Part shown: positions 13,001-35,698 of the stretch, piece after piece | Layout: the number at the start of each line of letters is the position of its first letter | How positions within the stretch are numbered: the first letter of the stretch is position 1 | Origin: Gemmatimonadales bacterium | GTDB lineage: Bacteria; Gemmatimonadota; Gemmatimonadetes; Gemmatimonadales; GWC2-71-9 | Length of the DNA stretch: 42,312 bases | Direction of reading: 5' to 3' | NCBI GenBank assembly: GCA_038321865.1 | Contig: JBBQFH010000029.1 | Location: forward strand, 1 to 42,312 | Made by a program: the position numbers and the translations under genes | The notes under the pieces: model-generated | What the model was told of the DNA's origin: nothing | Databases searched by the model: none | What the model saw: only the letters and a program-made list of their open reading frames with translations

Positions 13001-13084
13001 GGCACCCTCGGCGCGATGCTGGTGGTGCCCGCGATGGTGGTCGGGGGCAGACGGGTGTCCAGGACTCATACACCCCCTGTGTGA
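10040..13084 (+). CDS. RND efflux permease subunit 2 (divergent)
   Basis: GTGA overlap with permease 1. ETYLTSPIESAI, NLLTLAGLGMGIGILVQDG, TLTTLASLLPL; RND 12-TM layout. Confidence 0.93.
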   Translation: MIRWAVGRPAVIWAICLSLLLSGAVAFARLPLAARTTVELPTLQVRASWNGAAAELVETYLTSPIESAIQSVRGVKRTSSVSGDAQSSITVELEPDANIQLTRLAILERIEVLRPDFPAGAGSPTVSNYVPDDLDETPLLTYSVSGPYTAGALSKLVREAITPRVSAVPGVAGVNSFGSAEIGVAVAYNGARLRELDISPDALQRALANSRVVAALGDEQVGATERRIVLRDQPGVMEDLANLPITGAGGRIYPLGELATIRQDEDSRGMFFRIDGEPAVSLTIARLPNADAIKTAASARAVMTDLARTLPAGVRLVVRSDDTVDLKRELNDLILRGLIAFAAVMLVLAVTLRNAKSVGLVMGSAAVAIAGTALGLYLLHIPANLLTLAGLGMGIGILVQDGLIVTLRLRSQPDTPAGRAEAGRLIAPAVVGSTLTTAVVLFPFLYLQGNARAAFIPFAAAFTLALGWSVVSSLLMVPALGAGHGLYDAGWPRTERAYRTLVGALTRRRWITMTVAVAVLAVLAWGFVKKVPKSAGFGSFFGERTTLAVRLGFPRGSDPEALDRGMRDFESIVVGTPGVDQVITQGTGDGAFMRVVFEREAGLGSLPYEMQEALTQRALLIGGAEVNVQGKGPGFYAGGGGGGAVSYRIKLLGYSFDGVEQLALDLKSRLERIPRVKSVDVNAGSFFRQERAFTVTLEPDRAALARYGLTTTDFARAITREVRGPVGQQAIEINGEETNVSLKAAGARDRSLEELRAALVPNPAGAPVRVGDLARVDEREGLSSISREDQQYVRIVSYDFRGPQKLADRTHKAFMASISVPAGYSVGDDEFSWGNDDSTKGLWLVFAIGVTLVVLAVAMVFDSVWAAAIVFASLPFALAGVVAAFWLAKAAFTREAAVGVILVVGLAVHQAILLVDAALNRRRLAQKEGRGLRLTAVEAADAAGERSGMIVLVTLTTLASLLPLAIGTDSDSLFGAIALATTGGTIFGTLGAMLVVPAMVVGGRRVSRTHTPPV

Positions 13085-13122
13085 CCTGCGTCACACCGGA
13101 AGTGGCTCCCACGTTATATCCT
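13080..13122 (+). promoter_or_regulatory. CRP/FNR-family box TGTGA-N6-TCACA with a -10 element in class II geometry
   Basis: TGTGAcctgcgTCACA at 13080-13095 is a perfect CRP core. TATCCT at 13117-13122 starts 29.5 bp from the box centre. Confidence 0.55.
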
Positions 13123-13226: not shown

Positions 13227-14114
13227 ATGCGCAAACTGATACTCCTGGCCGCTATCGCCCTGACCGCCGCGGGCTGCGATGCCAGCAAGGAGAAGCTCGG
13301 CACCGCGATGGCCGACAACCAGCGGATCTCCGCCGAGAAGGACAGCCTCCTGACTGAGGTGATGGCCAACGCGACGCTGGTCAACGACATCAATACCGAA
13401 CTGGCCAAGGCGCGGAGCCTCGGCGCCAATCCGGTCGCCCCGGGCGAGGCCGGTGCCTCGGCCAATGGCGCCGATCGCCAGGTCGTGCTCGGCAAGATCC
13501 GCGATGCCATCACTCGTCTGAACGAGAGCGAGGCCCAGCTCGAGCGCAGCAAGACGCGCCTTGCCGCGATGACGAAGAAGGACACCCGCCTTATCGCCCA
13601 GATCAATCAGTACCAGAAGACGGTGACCGAGCTCAAGGCGACGATCGAGTCGCAGCAGGCCGAGTATACGGCGATCATCGACAGCCAGAAGGTCCAGATC
13701 GTGGCGCTGCATGCCACCGTGGACACCGCCCGTCAGGTCACCACGCAGCTCTCGACCGAGAAGCAGGCGCTGATCGATACGCTGAACACCGTCTATTATG
13801 TGGTCGGCACCAAGGATGAGCTGGTCAAGAAGGGTGTCGCGGTCCAGGAGGGCTCGAAGTTCCTGGTCTTCGGCGGGCACCACCTGGCGGCCGCGCGCTC
13901 ACTCACGCCGGCGCCGTTCGTCACGATCAACCGGATGCGCGACAGCACGATCGCGCTCCCGGACTCGACCAAGAGCTACAAGATCGTGACCCGCCAGGAC
14001 CCGGCGTTCGTCCAGCCGGCGGCCAAGGATGGGAAGCTCCGCGGCACGGTGCACATCACCTCGCCGGAGCAGTTCTGGGCTCCGTCGCGCTACCTGATCA
14101 TCGTTCAGAACTGA
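13227..14114 (+). CDS. Coiled-coil lipoprotein resembling the Bacteroidota Cbp1-like family
   Basis: Lipobox LTAAGC, long heptad region, C-terminal LNTVYYVVGTKDELVKKGV...ITSPEQFWAPSRYLII. Family assignment is from recall, not a search. Confidence 0.7.
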   Translation: MRKLILLAAIALTAAGCDASKEKLGTAMADNQRISAEKDSLLTEVMANATLVNDINTELAKARSLGANPVAPGEAGASANGADRQVVLGKIRDAITRLNESEAQLERSKTRLAAMTKKDTRLIAQINQYQKTVTELKATIESQQAEYTAIIDSQKVQIVALHATVDTARQVTTQLSTEKQALIDTLNTVYYVVGTKDELVKKGVAVQEGSKFLVFGGHHLAAARSLTPAPFVTINRMRDSTIALPDSTKSYKIVTRQDPAFVQPAAKDGKLRGTVHITSPEQFWAPSRYLIIVQN

Positions 14115-29889: not shown

Positions 29890-30537
29890 ATGGCACCCGG
29901 ACGCACGATTTTCTGGGACGTGGACACGCAGCACGACTTCATGAACGCCGATGGGAAGCTCTACGTCCCGGGCAGCGAGGAAATCATCCCCACCCTCGCC
30001 CGGCTGACTGCGTATGCCCACGCCCGCGGGATCACGATCGTCGCCAGCGCGGATGACCATGTGTCCGGACATCGCGAGCTGAGCGACTCACCCGACTTCC
30101 GGGAAACCTTTCCGCTCCACTGCATGCGGGGCACGCCGGGGCAGCGGAAGATCGCGGAAACGTCACTGCGCGATCCGCTGGTGATCGAGCCCGATCGCCA
30201 GGATCCGGTCGAGCTCGCCGAAAGGGTGCGCGCGCATCCGGGGGACATTCTTTTTCACAAGCACTGGTTCGACGTCTTCACCAATCCGAACGTGGCCCCG
30301 GCGCTGGACGCCCTCGACCCGGCGCACGTGGTCCTGTACGGCGTGGCCCTGGATGTCTGCGACCGGTATGCGGTGGAGGGGTTGCTGCAGCACTGTCCGG
30401 ACGTCCGCCTGTCACTGGTCACCGACGCCGCACGGGCGATCGACCCGGCCGCAGGCGAGCGCCTGCTGGACCAGTGGCGCGGCCGCGGGGTCGCGATGGT
30501 GTCGTCGGCGGACGTGCTCGAGGGCCGGGTTGTCTAG
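29890..30537 (+). CDS. pncA: Nicotinamidase / isochorismatase-family cysteine hydrolase
   Basis: WDVDTQHDF, ADDH, FPLHC, K, GVALDVC catalytic Cys. Confidence 0.85.
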   Translation: MAPGRTIFWDVDTQHDFMNADGKLYVPGSEEIIPTLARLTAYAHARGITIVASADDHVSGHRELSDSPDFRETFPLHCMRGTPGQRKIAETSLRDPLVIEPDRQDPVELAERVRAHPGDILFHKHWFDVFTNPNVAPALDALDPAHVVLYGVALDVCDRYAVEGLLQHCPDVRLSLVTDAARAIDPAAGERLLDQWRGRGVAMVSSADVLEGRVV

Positions 30538-31615
30538 CCAGGCTCCGGCACCCGGCCGCTACTTCCTTCCCGGCCCGGTCGCGGTACACCCAGAGGTGCT
30601 GGCGGAAATGACGCGGCCGCTGATCTCGCACCGGGGGCCGGAGATGGCCGCGCTCCTCGAGCGGATCCAGCCCTCGCTCCAGCAGGTCTTTCGCACGTCG
30701 CGTCCGGTGATGGTCGCCACGAGCTCGTCCACCGGGCTCATGGAGGCGGCGGTGCTTGCCGGCGTGCAGCAGCGGGTGCTGGTTGTCGTGGGGGGCTTCT
30801 TCGGCGAGCGGTTTGCCCAGGTCGCGGAAGCGTGCGGGAAGGAGGTCGTTCGGGTGATGATTCCCGAGGGCAGCGGCATCGAGGTCAGCCAGCTCGCCCG
30901 CTTCTTCGACGGCCCCGAAGTGGATGCCGTTGCGCTGGTACACTCGGAGACCTCCACCGGCGCGCTGGCGCCGCTGCGCGAGATCGCGACCGAGGTACGC
31001 CGACGCGCCGACGTGATGCTTCTGGTGGATGCGGTGAGCTCGGTCGGCGGACTTCCCGTCGAAACCGACGCGTGGGGTCTGGACTTCGTCTTCACCGGAT
31101 CGCAGAAGGCACTGGCGCTGCCGCCCGGACTCGCCTTCGGGGTCGCGTCGAGACGCCTCATGGAGCGGGCACGGGCGAATGGCGGTCGCGGCTGGTATTT
31201 CGACCTCGTCAAGCTCGAGGCCGCCGCCATCGAGTCCATGCCGACGCAGACGCCGGCGGTCTCGCTCCTCTTCGCGCTCGATCGTCAGCTGGCACGCATC
31301 GAAGCGGCGGGCGGAATCGAGGCGCGGTGGGCCCGCCATGCCCTGATGCGGGAGCGGGTGGAACGGTGGTGCGACGACGGCAGCGGCTATGCGCTCCTCG
31401 CGCCGCCCGGCCGGCGGTCCTGGACGGTTTCCGCACTCCGGCTTCCTCCGGGCCGTGATGCGTACGCACTGGTCGCGCGTCTCGCGGCTCAGGGGTTCAC
31501 CGTGACCACGGGACTCCCGCCGCTCGACAGGGACGTGATCCGCATCGGCCACATGGGTGAGGTGACGCCGGCCGAGCTCGACGTGCTCCTGGCCGCACTA
31601 AGTGACAATGACTAA
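30530..31615 (+). CDS. Class V PLP aminotransferase (alanine-glyoxylate / serine-pyruvate type)
   Basis: TTG start overlapping the upstream gene; FLPGPV, HSETSTG, VDAVSS, GSQKALALPPG, IRIGHMG. Confidence 0.92.
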   Translation: MSSQAPAPGRYFLPGPVAVHPEVLAEMTRPLISHRGPEMAALLERIQPSLQQVFRTSRPVMVATSSSTGLMEAAVLAGVQQRVLVVVGGFFGERFAQVAEACGKEVVRVMIPEGSGIEVSQLARFFDGPEVDAVALVHSETSTGALAPLREIATEVRRRADVMLLVDAVSSVGGLPVETDAWGLDFVFTGSQKALALPPGLAFGVASRRLMERARANGGRGWYFDLVKLEAAAIESMPTQTPAVSLLFALDRQLARIEAAGGIEARWARHALMRERVERWCDDGSGYALLAPPGRRSWTVSALRLPPGRDAYALVARLAAQGFTVTTGLPPLDRDVIRIGHMGEVTPAELDVLLAALSDND

Positions 31616-31625
31616 GTCCCTGATC

Positions 31626-31667
31626 TGTGACCTGTCGCACAGCACCCATTTTCCGGCGCGCTAAGTT
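31626..31667 (+). promoter_or_regulatory. CRP/FNR-like box and -10 element for the candidate sRNA
   Basis: TGTGAcctgtcGCACA (31626-31641, one mismatch to consensus) and TAAGTT (31662-31667). Confidence 0.45.
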
Positions 31668-31672
31668 CAACC

Positions 31673-31850
31673 GCAGTGAACGTGGTGGGCCGGTAACAAG
31701 GCGCGAGACATCCGATCAGCCTCCTGAGCGCCCTGCTCAGAGCCGGATGGTTGCCGGTCAGGCCAGGTTCGCTGCAGGCTCCCCTCACGAACCCCTCGAT
31801 CAAATTTCTCGCCGGGAACGGGCGTTCGCGCCCGTTCCACCCGCCTTTTC
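31673..31850 (+). ncRNA. Candidate structured small RNA, family not recognised
   Basis: Nested helices 31673-81/31767-75, 31688-97/31750-59, 31709-14/31744-49 and 31724-29/31735-40. Wobble pairs work only on the + strand. Lies between convergent genes, with a promoter upstream and a terminator downstream. Confidence 0.55.
31815..31850 (+). terminator. Intrinsic terminator-like hairpin, possibly bidirectional
   Basis: Perfect 10-bp stem GGAACGGGCG-TTCG-CGCCCGTTCC followed by ACCCGCCTTTTC. Confidence 0.7.
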
Positions 31851-31871
31851 TGCCTGCGGCGTGTGAGCAGA

Positions 31872-33647
31872 TCACGCGCGCGGAGTTCGCCGCCAGCGCT
31901 CGGCGCGATCTGACCACAGGACCGCGGCGGCACCGATGAACGCGAGAAACAGCATCAATTGAAATGGCAGCCCCCACCGACGCACTCGGCCGGCGGCAGC
32001 GAACGGTTCGCTGCCGCCGGTGACATGTTCGGTCGCCCGACGGCGGGCTGATGCCTGCACCGAGCGCCACGCACGAGCGGGCCGGACATCGAAGTCCAGG
32101 CTGGCTGAATCGCCGCGGATGCGGTGCCAGCCTGTTCGGCGGGGCCAGTAGGTCCCGTGCCACTCCGAAGACACGATGCGATCCTGCGCGAGATACACCG
32201 AGTCTGTGCTGCCATCCGGATCGACGATGCCGGCCACCACGGCCGTCGACGTTCCGAAGCGGGTGAGCCGAAGCGGTGCACCGACCCGCGCGGGAGCCTC
32301 CGCCACCCAACGCTCCCCGTCGGGCCGGGCCACGCTTCCGATCAGGAGCGACCAGTAGGACGCGAATCGTTCCGGCTCGCCGCCAAGTAGCCAGCGAGAC
32401 GGGGTGGCCGCGAGGGTGACGGCCACCGCACCGGTGCCAAGCGGTCGGCGCGCCGCGGCCACCCCGCCAGCCGAGTCGGTGACGAGGACAGTCGCCGCCT
32501 CTCCGACGCTCAGCGAGAGTGGCGCGAGCGCGATCGGCCGACGGTCGACCTGCCCGTCCCACCCGAGTTGCGTCACGCGCTCAGGCGAGGCGCGGAGCCC
32601 GAACCCGGCGAGGAGCCGGTCGCCCCGATCGGGCACGGCATCCAGCCGCACGATGAGTCCGAGCCCTCTCGCGCGGACCGCCAGCGTCAGCGCGGAGCGC
32701 TCGCTCGTGCCCAGTCCAGCGAGCGAGCGGCCATCGAGCAGTACCGCGTCGTAGCGGGAGAGTGCGGCGGAGTCGATCCGCCCAAGCTCGCCGACCGGGC
32801 GGTTCACGTTCGTCGTCCGGTAACGCGCGCGGCTGATTTCGGTTCGCACGGTGAGCTGGCCGCCGGCCGCGGCCATCCAGTCCTTGAGATACCGTGTTTC
32901 GAAGGTGGGCGCGCCGTCGACTACCAGGAGTCGCGGAAGCGCACGCCGCACGACGGAGACCCCCATGGTCTCGGCGGAAATTCCGCCGGCGCCGAAGATC
33001 CGGATCACGTAGTGCAGGCGTGCGGCGGTTTTCGGAACGGTGCCCAGGCTGAAGGTCGAATCCGGCGCGACGCGTGCCGAGTCGGCCGGTCCGGCCGGGT
33101 CGTCGAGCCTGACGCGCGTGCCCGGCGCGATGCCGGTCGTCGTGCCCCGTAGGGCGAACCTGCTGCCGGCCGCCACGCTCGGGGCCCAACGCACCGTGCC
33201 GATGCCAGGGGGAAGCGCTGCCGCGACAAAGCGCGCAGGCACTCCCCGCAGCGCGTCCATCTCCCCCTCACGGAGGCCCCAGCCGACGATGATGGCCGCT
33301 CTCGTGGCCGGATAGTGGCGCAACACGAACGCGATATCCGGTACCGCGCTCGCGCTGGCCCCGAAGCGGCTGGTCTCCTGCTCGTCCAGCACGTAGACCG
33401 ACCCGCGTGCGGAATCGGCGAGGTGCCGCACGAGAGCCGGGTCGGCGCCCTCGGTGGCGATCACGGCGACGGCGCGCTCCGGGTGCGTCACCGGGCGCTC
33501 CGAGGCCAGAAGCGCAAGTGACGCAACCGCGATCACCGACGCCGCGATGCGGCGGCCGACGTGCCGGCGGTCGAGGCGGCGCCACTCCAGCCAGATGAGG
33601 CCCAGCGCCGCGATCCCGGCGGCCGCTCCCACCAGCGGAAGCGTCAT
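31872..33647 (-). CDS. Membrane-anchored hypothetical protein of the MoxR cluster (Ig-like plus GATase-like region)
   Basis: ATG at 33647 overlaps the upstream stop (ATGA). Two N-terminal TMs, LLVVDGAPTFETRYLKDW, C-terminal TM. Confidence 0.75.
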   Translation of the reverse strand: MTLPLVGAAAGIAALGLIWLEWRRLDRRHVGRRIAASVIAVASLALLASERPVTHPERAVAVIATEGADPALVRHLADSARGSVYVLDEQETSRFGASASAVPDIAFVLRHYPATRAAIIVGWGLREGEMDALRGVPARFVAAALPPGIGTVRWAPSVAAGSRFALRGTTTGIAPGTRVRLDDPAGPADSARVAPDSTFSLGTVPKTAARLHYVIRIFGAGGISAETMGVSVVRRALPRLLVVDGAPTFETRYLKDWMAAAGGQLTVRTEISRARYRTTNVNRPVGELGRIDSAALSRYDAVLLDGRSLAGLGTSERSALTLAVRARGLGLIVRLDAVPDRGDRLLAGFGLRASPERVTQLGWDGQVDRRPIALAPLSLSVGEAATVLVTDSAGGVAAARRPLGTGAVAVTLAATPSRWLLGGEPERFASYWSLLIGSVARPDGERWVAEAPARVGAPLRLTRFGTSTAVVAGIVDPDGSTDSVYLAQDRIVSSEWHGTYWPRRTGWHRIRGDSASLDFDVRPARAWRSVQASARRRATEHVTGGSEPFAAAGRVRRWGLPFQLMLFLAFIGAAAVLWSDRAERWRRTPRA

Positions 33648-35698
33648 CGCGATTCCAGGTGCTCGAAGTAGCGCTGGGTGAGGGGGGCGACACCTGGCAG
33701 CACACGGCTTGGCAGCGGAGCGGCGCCAGGCAATGCCCGAAGCAGACCCCTGAGCGCTTCCGATGCGCAGCGCACGCACGTCGCTCCCGCCCGGGCGCTG
33801 TCCGCCACCGCGCGCAGCGCCCGCATCGTCACGAGCTGGTCGGGCTGCACCGCCGCCAGTGGTGCCAGCTCGACCTCCGCCTGCTCCAGGGCCCGTACGT
33901 CCGCCGCGCCGATGGCAACGCCGGGGGCGAGCGTGCCGAGCACGCCCACCGCCACGCGCACCGCCGGCAGGGCCGGCAGCACCGCCAGAGTGTCCCGGTC
34001 TGCGCGGCTCGCGATCGCATCGAGCTTTCCGGTGAGGCGGGTTCGCAACGGATCGAGCGGCGGCGGCTCGAACCCGACCTTCTGCACGTACACCCGCGCG
34101 CTCTGCTGGGCCTGCTTCAGCAGGTCCAGCGCCCGGTACTCGTACGGCAACGCCTCGGCGGGGCGGTAGGTGCGGAGCCGCAGCTCGGCCGCCCACATCT
34201 GCTCGAGCGCGCCCTTGAGCTTGGCCTTCACCGTCGCGGCGAGCAGGGTCGAGTTCTCCGGCGTATCGTGCTGGTGCGCCGTCGTCGCGTCGTCACCGGT
34301 CTCGGTCTCGTCACCGACGAACTGCCCGTAGCGTGCGCGGAGCAGCCCCTGGTCGAGGCCGATATCGTTCGACCGGTTCCGAAACGACTCAAGGGTGATG
34401 CGCGGCCGGTCGGCCAGCAACTTTTCGGTATCGATGATGATCTGGCGCTCACTGCGGAAATACTCGGGCTGGAGCCGAAGTGCGATGCCGGCGATCGTTG
34501 CCGTCGCGATGCGCGCGGTGTCGAGGATGCTGAGAAAGACGGTTTCCGACCGTGCGACGTTCGGCTGGGGCGTGCGCCGGTCGCTCACTTCGGCATGGAA
34601 GTACAGCTCGTCACCCGGCTTGAGGCCGAGCGCCGCGAGATCCAGCGTGGCGCGCAGCGTGACGCCGTGCGGCAATGTCGAGTGCGGCCCACCCGCAACG
34701 AGCGCGAACGTGCGCTCGCGAAACCTGACCGCCTCACCCTCGCCGGACGTGAGCGTTGCCACCAGGCGCGCGGCCCCCAGCCCGTAGTCGTCCCCGGCGA
34801 CGGCTTCGACCGATACCCTGAGTGCGCTCCCGGGTGCCAGCTCGGTCCGGCCACGCGGAGCCGTGATGGCGATGGTCGGCGCCGCGTCCGGCTCCACCGC
34901 GAGGCGGTGGAAGTCCGACACCACGTGCCGCCCGCCTCGTTCGGCGATCACCTGATACAGGACGGACGTCCGCGCGTGAATGGTGCCGCTCCGGATCGGT
35001 CCGCTGGCCTCGAGCCGCACCGTGTCGTCGGTCGTCGTCACCAGCCACGCGGAGTCGGCCTCGACGCCGATGCGCCAGACGACGTCGGCGCCTTCCGGTG
35101 CGGCGATGTCCCACGCGCGCTGGTCGCGCGCCGGCAGTCCGGTGTAGGGCGGCGGCGTCACGCGCACATCGACGCCGCCGATCAGCGCTCCCGCTGCCGG
35201 CGGCGCGACGGCGCGCACCGGCGTATCGCGCGCCGGCACGCCCCGGGGAATGAGCAGCAGCAGCGCACCCGCCAGCGCCGCGATGACGCCCCCGGCCATC
35301 GCTCGGCGCGACGCGCGGTCGGGCGGCGCGTCCAGTGCGCCCACTCGGTCGAACGCGGCCGCGACTCTCCGGCGCTCCAGCGCCGCCACCAGGGGCAGCG
35401 ACCCGGCCTCGGCGAGCAGCAGCTCGGTGCTCTCCTCGAGCTCGAGGATCGTCCGGTCGAGATGCCGCGCCACGTGGACCGCGGCGACCGGGTGGCGCCG
35501 CGCGCGATCCCACGCCCAGACCAGCAGCGCGGCGAAGGCGAGCATCGCGGCCGCGGCCGCAAGCGTCGCAGACCCGCCGAGCGCGCCGGTGAGTCCGGCC
35601 GCCAGGAGCGCCGCCCCGACCGCGAGCGCGAGCGCTGACGCCCGCCGGCGACCGCGATACCGGCCTGCCATCCGCTCGAGCGCCTGCGCGTGCGTCAC
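33644..35698 (-). CDS. Membrane protein, DUF4175-like (TM segments, Ig-like domains, helical C-terminus)
   Basis: GTG at 35698 (GTGA overlap). LEESTELL, VTPPPYTGLP, DDYGL, LKPGDELYF, YFRSERQIIIDTEKL. Confidence 0.8.
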   Translation of the reverse strand: MTHAQALERMAGRYRGRRRASALALAVGAALLAAGLTGALGGSATLAAAAAMLAFAALLVWAWDRARRHPVAAVHVARHLDRTILELEESTELLLAEAGSLPLVAALERRRVAAAFDRVGALDAPPDRASRRAMAGGVIAALAGALLLLIPRGVPARDTPVRAVAPPAAGALIGGVDVRVTPPPYTGLPARDQRAWDIAAPEGADVVWRIGVEADSAWLVTTTDDTVRLEASGPIRSGTIHARTSVLYQVIAERGGRHVVSDFHRLAVEPDAAPTIAITAPRGRTELAPGSALRVSVEAVAGDDYGLGAARLVATLTSGEGEAVRFRERTFALVAGGPHSTLPHGVTLRATLDLAALGLKPGDELYFHAEVSDRRTPQPNVARSETVFLSILDTARIATATIAGIALRLQPEYFRSERQIIIDTEKLLADRPRITLESFRNRSNDIGLDQGLLRARYGQFVGDETETGDDATTAHQHDTPENSTLLAATVKAKLKGALEQMWAAELRLRTYRPAEALPYEYRALDLLKQAQQSARVYVQKVGFEPPPLDPLRTRLTGKLDAIASRADRDTLAVLPALPAVRVAVGVLGTLAPGVAIGAADVRALEQAEVELAPLAAVQPDQLVTMRALRAVADSARAGATCVRCASEALRGLLRALPGAAPLPSRVLPGVAPLTQRYFEHLESR

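Follow-up and report, generated by a model that had tools for sequence, protein, structure and literature searches.

Does the gap between two convergent genes in a 42,312-nt stretch of Gemmatimonadales DNA (hereafter the window) give rise to an RNA of its own and, if so, to what kind of RNA? The gap (31616–31871) is bounded by a plus-strand ORF ending at 31615 and a minus-strand ORF ending at 31872, and the original prediction placed in it an independently transcribed small RNA with a CRP/FNR-type promoter and a terminator. All the features named there were found in the sequence exactly where they had been placed (Table 1). The gap holds a real, conserved and structured non-coding unit of about 175 nt on the plus strand, which, judging from comparative evidence, is most likely a CRP-activated, Hfq-independent sRNA. 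The element is present in one copy in the window's genome, and the covariance model of the family matches the window at 31672–31850. Upstream, the aminotransferase gene closes a run of nicotinate phosphoribosyltransferase, isochorismatase-family and aminotransferase genes, whereas the convergent ORF is the last in a gene run with DUF58/BatA domains.

Table 1. Features of the element and its neighbours in the window.
Feature	Position	Strand	Remarks
Class V aminotransferase (upstream neighbour)	30353–31615	+	True start probably later than 30353
CRP-type box TGTGA-N6-GCACA	31626–31641	+	Centred on 31633.5 (−41.5 relative to A31675 as start); class II position
−10 hexamer TAAGTT	31662–31667	+	Family consensus TAT(C/A)(T/C)T; 20 nt after the box; putative function
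Predicted RNA, ~175 nt	31673–31849	+	Predicted start 31674–31675; predicted end in the U-run
5′ rod	31673–31775	+	P1, P2, P3 and apical hairpin; fold and compensatory changes
P1	31673–86/31762–75	+	Helices 31673–81/31767–75 and 31683–86/31762–65
P2	31688–97/31750–59	+	Fold
Bulged GCGAGA, 5′ strand of putative pseudoknot	31703–31708	+	97/98 genome homologs
P3	31709–14/31744–49	+	Fold
Apical hairpin	31719–43	+	Helix 31724–29/31735–40
Apical loop with CCC	31729–31735	+	Family consensus UCCCCUG; CCC in 97/98 loops
C/U linker, predicted unpaired	31776–31806	+	Two C-runs, 31781–84 and 31792–95
UCUCGC, 3′ strand of putative pseudoknot	31807–31812	+	98/98 genome homologs, most of them selected on UCUCGC
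10-bp hairpin, UUCG loop	31815–31838	+	Stem nearly invariant, loop variable; double changes in 4/10 pairs
C-rich tail ACCCGCC (7 nt), then U-run	31839–31851	+	Homolog counts
Probable relic of second CRP-type box, TGTGA-N5-TCACG	31862–31876	+	Overlaps stop codon of convergent gene
Downstream convergent ORF	31872–34196	−	No family match; true start probably later

Database searches revealed about 200 homologs, 98 from genomes and 102 from metagenome contigs among the matches listed, two sets that may overlap. They share one layout: 20 nt separate a TGTGA-N6-(G)CACA box from the −10 hexamer, and a rod of ~100 nt is followed by a G-free linker of C and U, which hardly varies in length, and then by a 10-bp hairpin, a C-rich tail and a U-run. 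The RNA is 174–189 nt long (median 178). A blastn search of 151 family genomes returned 23 places, of which 9 are true homologs; the remaining 14, all brief matches by chance that lack the element, were dropped. In a collection of species-representative genomes, 91 stretches matched an exact pattern for the 3′ part; of the 80 with titles listed, 79 are titled Gemmatimonadales, Gemmatimonadaceae or Gemmatimonadota, the remaining one bearing the label Bacillota. A record with this label (L039) carries the RNA with gene neighbours as in the window's genus, and the label is probably wrong. The pattern used for metagenomes, which fixed neither the hexamers nor the promoter, matched at least 120 loci; the 112 unique matches listed include 102 real elements and 10 chance matches without any hallmark.

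A covariance model search of 150 family genomes detected the RNA in 15 of them, spread over 8 of 78 genera. In a sample of the phylum, 14 of 150 genomes were matched, all but one within the family, and the single exception (28.5 bits), with neither the box nor the hexamer pair, was set aside as a chance match. In a sample of the class, a second covariance model matched 4 of 150 genomes, all in the family. As these searches scored only 18 candidates per genome, diverged copies may be missed. A loosened hairpin pattern matched 18 of 151 genomes, but an upstream box was present in only 3 of 19 loci; the viral contigs searched contained no match to the element. As far as they reach, these searches place the RNA in some members of a single family of uncultured Gemmatimonadales. 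Two differing copies of the RNA locus (L038 and L062) lie on two contigs of one assembly, which may reflect a mixed bin or a duplication.

The minimum-energy fold of 31670–31850 on the plus strand reproduces the rod and the 3′ hairpin with a z-score of −3.53, none of 200 shuffled sequences folding as well; the original prediction was to be abandoned if the folding energy was no better than that of dinucleotide-shuffled controls. For the minus strand, the z-score is −1.61, with 8 of 200 shuffles as good. The four G–U pairs in the window's rod, read on the plus strand, had been taken to point to a plus-strand RNA, and the homologs share this bias, with 456 G–U cells versus 64 A–C cells. This excess, together with the better folding of the plus strand in 31 of 33 homologs (every third of the 98), favours a plus-strand RNA. 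Two other pairings were discarded, namely, a whole-gap fold joining both gap ends, which has low ensemble support and a weaker z-score (−2.69) and is not conserved, and a helix of 31770–79 with 31853–62, which can form in the window but is absent in homologs.

Conservation and covariation in relatives, the check proposed at the outset, bear out the rod. RNAalifold recovers the rod and the hairpin from a plain MAFFT alignment (62 of 90 unique sequences), in which 20 of 47 named pairs show changes on both sides, more than in any of 500 shuffles. In the model-fitted alignment of the 98 homologs, which is biased towards the modelled structure, 96.6% of cells pair, compared with 37–44% in slid controls, and double changes occur in 30 pairs, with compensatory changes in 10 of 11 pairs of P1, 7 of 7 of P2, 3 of 6 of P3 and 6 of 7 of the apical hairpin. 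When kinship is allowed for by mapping changes onto a tree, structure pairs change together on 54.9 branches versus 18.2 expected, about 39 of these co-changes being independent and compensatory, while other column pairs stand at 0.92 of expectation. In a home-made R-scape-like ranking of 15051 column pairs, structure pairs account for 7 of the top 10; under the stricter tree-based null of this type, 1 of 41 pairs reaches E<0.05. This last figure would fit a reading in which the conservation reflects DNA-level features (binding sites or a repeat) or a gene for a small peptide, with no functional RNA involved, a reading that we consider very improbable in view of the compensatory changes and the G–U excess. 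Moreover, the element is single-copy in the genome, indels among homologs shift frames, and an ORF of at least 10 codons led by a Shine–Dalgarno sequence is found in only 13 of 98 homologs on the plus strand and 37 of 98 on the minus strand. One detail of the proposed fold did not survive: GCCUCC (31719–24), originally read as an unpaired seed, contains in homologs the paired GCC strand of the apical helix and is not conserved as an unpaired stretch.

The promoter elements are conserved too. The box is kept in 98 of 99 genome homologs and, among the matches listed, in 97 of 98 metagenome homologs, for which the search pattern left the box out, and the −10 hexamer stands at one fixed distance from the box in 94 of 98 homologs. 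FNR reads TTGAT, its site being TTGAT-N4-ATCAA, whereas a recognition helix with the R-E-x-x-x-R motif reads TGTGA. The left half-site of the box is TGTGA in 96 of 98 homologs and does not conform to an FNR site. A CRP-like protein encoded in the genome carries SSRETVSR (R-E-x-x-x-R) in its recognition helix; its best NCBIfam match is CRP, albeit below the cut-off, and its solved relatives are CRP/CAP. Judged by this half-site and this protein, the box is of the CRP type and not of the FNR type, so that of the ‘CRP/FNR-type’ promoter suggested originally, the conserved activator-type box and the −10 hexamer at fixed spacing stand, with the FNR alternative falling away. At the level of sequence, a TGTGA-N6-TCACA-like site near −41.5 and a CRP with the R-E-x-x-x-R helix correspond to a predicted class II CRP promoter. 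The genome also encodes five nucleotide-cyclase domains, and words of the TGTGA-N6-TCACA type with a 6-nt spacer occur in it 40 times (27 of them intergenic), against 11–17 occurrences for other spacers; the enrichment is similar in 1.6 Mb of one relative. A consensus scan called no sigma-70 promoter at the element, as would be usual for a promoter in which an activator site stands in for the −35 hexamer. Elsewhere in the window, a perfect TGTGA-N6-TCACA site (13080–13095), with a −10-like word ~20 nt downstream, lies 139 nt before an ORF of 295 aa (13227–14114) that has weak Pfam matches of the coiled-coil type only.

The view of the element as a free-standing plus-strand unit rather than a 5′ leader holds, the two flanking genes being convergent as described. 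Across the homolog loci, the flanking genes differ in identity and direction on either side. Of 88 loci, 68 have the closest upstream gene on the strand of the RNA and 20 have it on the opposite strand; for the closest downstream gene, the corresponding figures are 54 and 32 of 86 loci. Because the neighbours vary on both sides and a second box lies 3′ of the RNA, at a distance of at most 200 nt in 61 of 96 homolog loci, the RNA is not the leader of either neighbour. Nonetheless, the RNA keeps to one chromosomal neighbourhood, mostly directly 3′ of pncB-like, pncA-like or aminotransferase genes, and its compact fold with an invariant core is riboswitch-like and its terminator atypical, as might be expected of a cis element, that is, a 3′ end structure, ligand sensor or attenuator acting on the upstream NAD-salvage/aminotransferase gene or on the downstream gene. 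Such a role is improbable for an RNA with its own conserved promoter motif, given that the upstream gene points away in the 20 loci mentioned and that the downstream gene, which in the window is convergent, has a box of its own in the 61 loci.

Downstream of the rod, the linker measures 29–34 nt in 93 of 98 homologs and contains 2.7% G. Its C-runs, at linker positions 6–8 and 17–19, are clustered beyond what composition alone would produce; two CCC runs are present in 82% of homologs versus 36% in shuffles, and the best pairing of the linker to the AAGGAGGU word averages 6.1 nt versus 4.9 nt in shuffles. With the apical loop and the tail, the element has several conserved C-runs in predicted unpaired regions, as is typical of RsaE/RoxS-type sRNAs. 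The GCGAGA bulge had been proposed to pair with UCUCGC, and the near invariance of both hexamers agrees with this proposal: among the matches listed, metagenome homologs, which were not selected on the hexamers, carry GCGAGA in 101 of 101 full-length cases and UCUCGC in 102 of 102. An exact complement of the hexamer arises in 1.8% of shuffled linkers, and the duplex with its flanks has a computed energy of about −10 kcal/mol. Because the alignment of 98 homologs contains no covariation between the hexamers, we infer their pairing rather than observe it, and regard the pseudoknot as plausible. Diverged units in other genera, described below, retain a CCUCGC word without a consistent partner, and the word may accordingly matter in its own right.

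Of the terminator originally proposed for the element, the 10-bp UUCG hairpin is present. The tail reads ACCCACC in 86 of the 98 homologs, ACCCGCC in 6, YCCCUCC in 4 (a CCCUCC tail confined to diverged homologs) and otherwise in 2, and at least four T residues occur within 6 nt after it in 78 of 98. However, all 98 homologs counted have 7 nt of C-rich sequence between the stem and the U-run, which departs from a canonical intrinsic terminator, and the consensus scan called no such terminator at the element; we infer that transcription ends in the U-run.

Against Rfam 15, as the original prediction had recommended, no match at the gathering threshold was obtained in the window or in 20 homolog loci, and at relaxed thresholds the best E-values were 1.5 for the window and 0.45 for 10 homolog loci, with no family recurring. 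RF00013 (6S RNA) gave no match in the window's genome at E≤1 and none in 150 family genomes, and in the window's genome there is no room for a 6S RNA before rny, where the upstream gene is one that we take to be zapA. SRP RNA, RNase P RNA and tmRNA were each found above the cut-off on other contigs of the genome. Pfam Hfq had no match in any of the 151 family genomes. The portions consulted of the literature on Gemmatimonadota and RNA, including PMC9331176, describe no regulatory RNA, and the main text, as far as accessed, of a survey of ncRNA in 50 genomes (PMC11109978) does not name the phylum, although a motif in its supplement might overlap the family. Overall, the ncRNA family appears to be new, whereas regulators of the kind closest to it are already known.

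By working mode, the closest known RNAs are sRNAs with C-rich regions, namely, RsaE of Staphylococcus and its counterpart RoxS of Bacillus subtilis, FsrA and CsfG. The likeness to RsaE/RoxS and to the enterobacterial CyaR rests on the four unpaired CCC places, the CRP-type promoter and the lack of an Hfq match. According to the sections consulted of PMC4409812, RsaE/RoxS pair with Shine–Dalgarno sequences through several C-rich regions with little effect of Hfq; the element shares with them the free-standing gene and several short C-runs in loops or single strands, and would also share control by a metabolic transcription factor and little or no dependence on Hfq. It differs in its longer, covarying rod, putative pseudoknot and invariant 3′ stem and in a CRP-type box in place of ResD/SrrA control, and there is no sequence or Rfam match between them. 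CyaR is CRP-dependent and binds the Shine–Dalgarno region of ompX, as stated in the part of PMC11795201 consulted; CRP activation and Shine–Dalgarno pairing, both only predicted for the element, would be common to the two, but CyaR needs Hfq, not found in the element's family, and has a different fold, and the element gives no Rfam match to it.

The hypothesis that we favour, if tentatively and with slightly less than even confidence, is that of an sRNA of ~175 nt that represses mRNAs by pairing of its CCC motifs with G-rich ribosome-binding sites, without Hfq. Under this model, cAMP–CRP would bind at −41.5 and activate a sigma-70-type promoter; the RNA would fold into the rod, with the GCGAGA bulge pairing with UCUCGC and thereby keeping the C/U linker looped out at a constant length; and four CCC motifs (in the apical loop, two in the linker and in the 3′ tail) would nucleate short duplexes on Shine–Dalgarno regions, much as the C-rich regions of RsaE/RoxS do. 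The genome's Shine–Dalgarno words are AGGAG and GGAGG, the gene caller having favoured such words. Target searches by duplex energy without accessibility, in two genomes and of low power, gave no signal above controls. A duplex scan of five segments against the start regions of ~3000 called genes performed no better than shuffled segments, and joint top targets of six segments across 375 ortholog pairs with one relative did not exceed permuted controls. Exact 10-mer complements near start codons amounted to 118 scattered matches with no standout. The usual downstream gene, which encodes a small basic protein, was likewise rejected as a target, its ribosome-binding site ranking at a median percentile of 0.38–0.55 (42 loci) and hence not being preferred. 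Within the model itself, a closed pseudoknot would limit pairing by the linker.

The pattern of conservation also tells against base pairing, since only 1 of 31 linker columns is invariant, unlike in a typical seed; conservation peaks instead at the two hexamers, P3, the 3′ stem and the tail, where 6 of 6 and 6 of 6 positions in the hexamers and 17 of 25 in the 3′ hairpin hardly vary. These near-constant paired positions, as well as the tightly kept total and linker lengths, would suit an RNA in which the invariant core, with the pseudoknot stacking on P3 at one side and on the 3′ hairpin at the other, forms together with the fixed-length linker a shape read by a protein. The partner could be RNA polymerase, in a 6S/Ms1/CoRP-like role under carbon limitation, or a factor that binds C-rich RNA and is titrated by way of the repeated CCC motifs. 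The absence of Rfam 6S matches from the family and of space for a 6S gene before rny fits this possibility, as do the first two null target tests and the report, in the portion consulted of PMC11077062, that other RNA polymerase-binding RNAs occur in lineages without 6S. The small basic protein gene that comes next in 42 of 85 loci, usually behind the second box, also speaks for this role, but tblastn did not find it in the window's genome. The hallmark of 6S RNA is a rod closed by pairing of the 5′ and 3′ ends, with a central bubble. The element is similar to 6S RNA in size and in its long irregular rod, and occurs in a lineage without Rfam 6S, but its 5′ end pairs with the middle (around position 100) and not with the 3′ end, leaving the linker, hairpin and tail outside the rod, and it lacks the symmetric central bubble; its patchy distribution is also unlike that of 6S, Ms1 and CoRP or of any housekeeping RNA of RNA polymerase. 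With the conserved bases located in helices, the lengths fixed and no Rfam 6S, we regard a protein-binding role as possible and nearly as likely as base pairing.

Either way, the family is well defined by its ~200 homologs, unusual fold and conserved promoter; it would provide a first handle on post-transcriptional control in Gemmatimonadota and is a ready candidate for Rfam, and the choice between mRNA pairing and RNA polymerase binding bears on what replaces 6S RNA in lineages without it. A bolder version, unlikely in our estimation, would see here a new class of regulatory RNA: cAMP–CRP-induced, ring-shaped and pseudoknotted, binding RNA polymerase or another core factor and co-induced with the small basic protein, in a lineage without recognisable 6S or Hfq. 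It would then be one member of a larger set of rod RNAs with CRP boxes that occupy this locus.

Several further elements occur at the homologous or syntenic loci. At the syntenic site after the aminotransferase gene, 4 of 40 loci from genomes without a model match, plus one more, contain a diverged unit (L152:1402–1600, L179:1255–1480, L188:1191–1400, L191:1208–1390 and L333) with a CRP-type box, a 5′ rod, a C-rich linker in which CCUCC, AUCCUCGC and similar words occur, and a 3′ hairpin related to that of the family; these units are probably distant members of a wider group. A further CRP-type box followed by a long folded non-coding stretch is present at L179:1577–1830, L188:1416–1660, L152 (from 1611 and from 1808) and L333, with L152 possessing a third CRP-type box that also leads into a folded non-coding stretch, and in L188 and L333 the long stem of the downstream unit stops before a U-rich run. 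The downstream stretches likely represent a second ncRNA family in tandem, the motif of which was not found in the window's genome. The small basic protein (L005:1754–2074, L029:2656–3030 and 40 more loci) is ~100–160 aa long in most intact copies, with a conserved N-terminus and a Lys/Arg/Ser-rich tail, and has no match in Pfam or NCBIfam; some of its copies appear to be disrupted. Finally, short imperfect heptamer-like tandem and inverted repeats occupy the spacer that follows the U-run in L008, L035, L061, L084, L094, L134 and L138.
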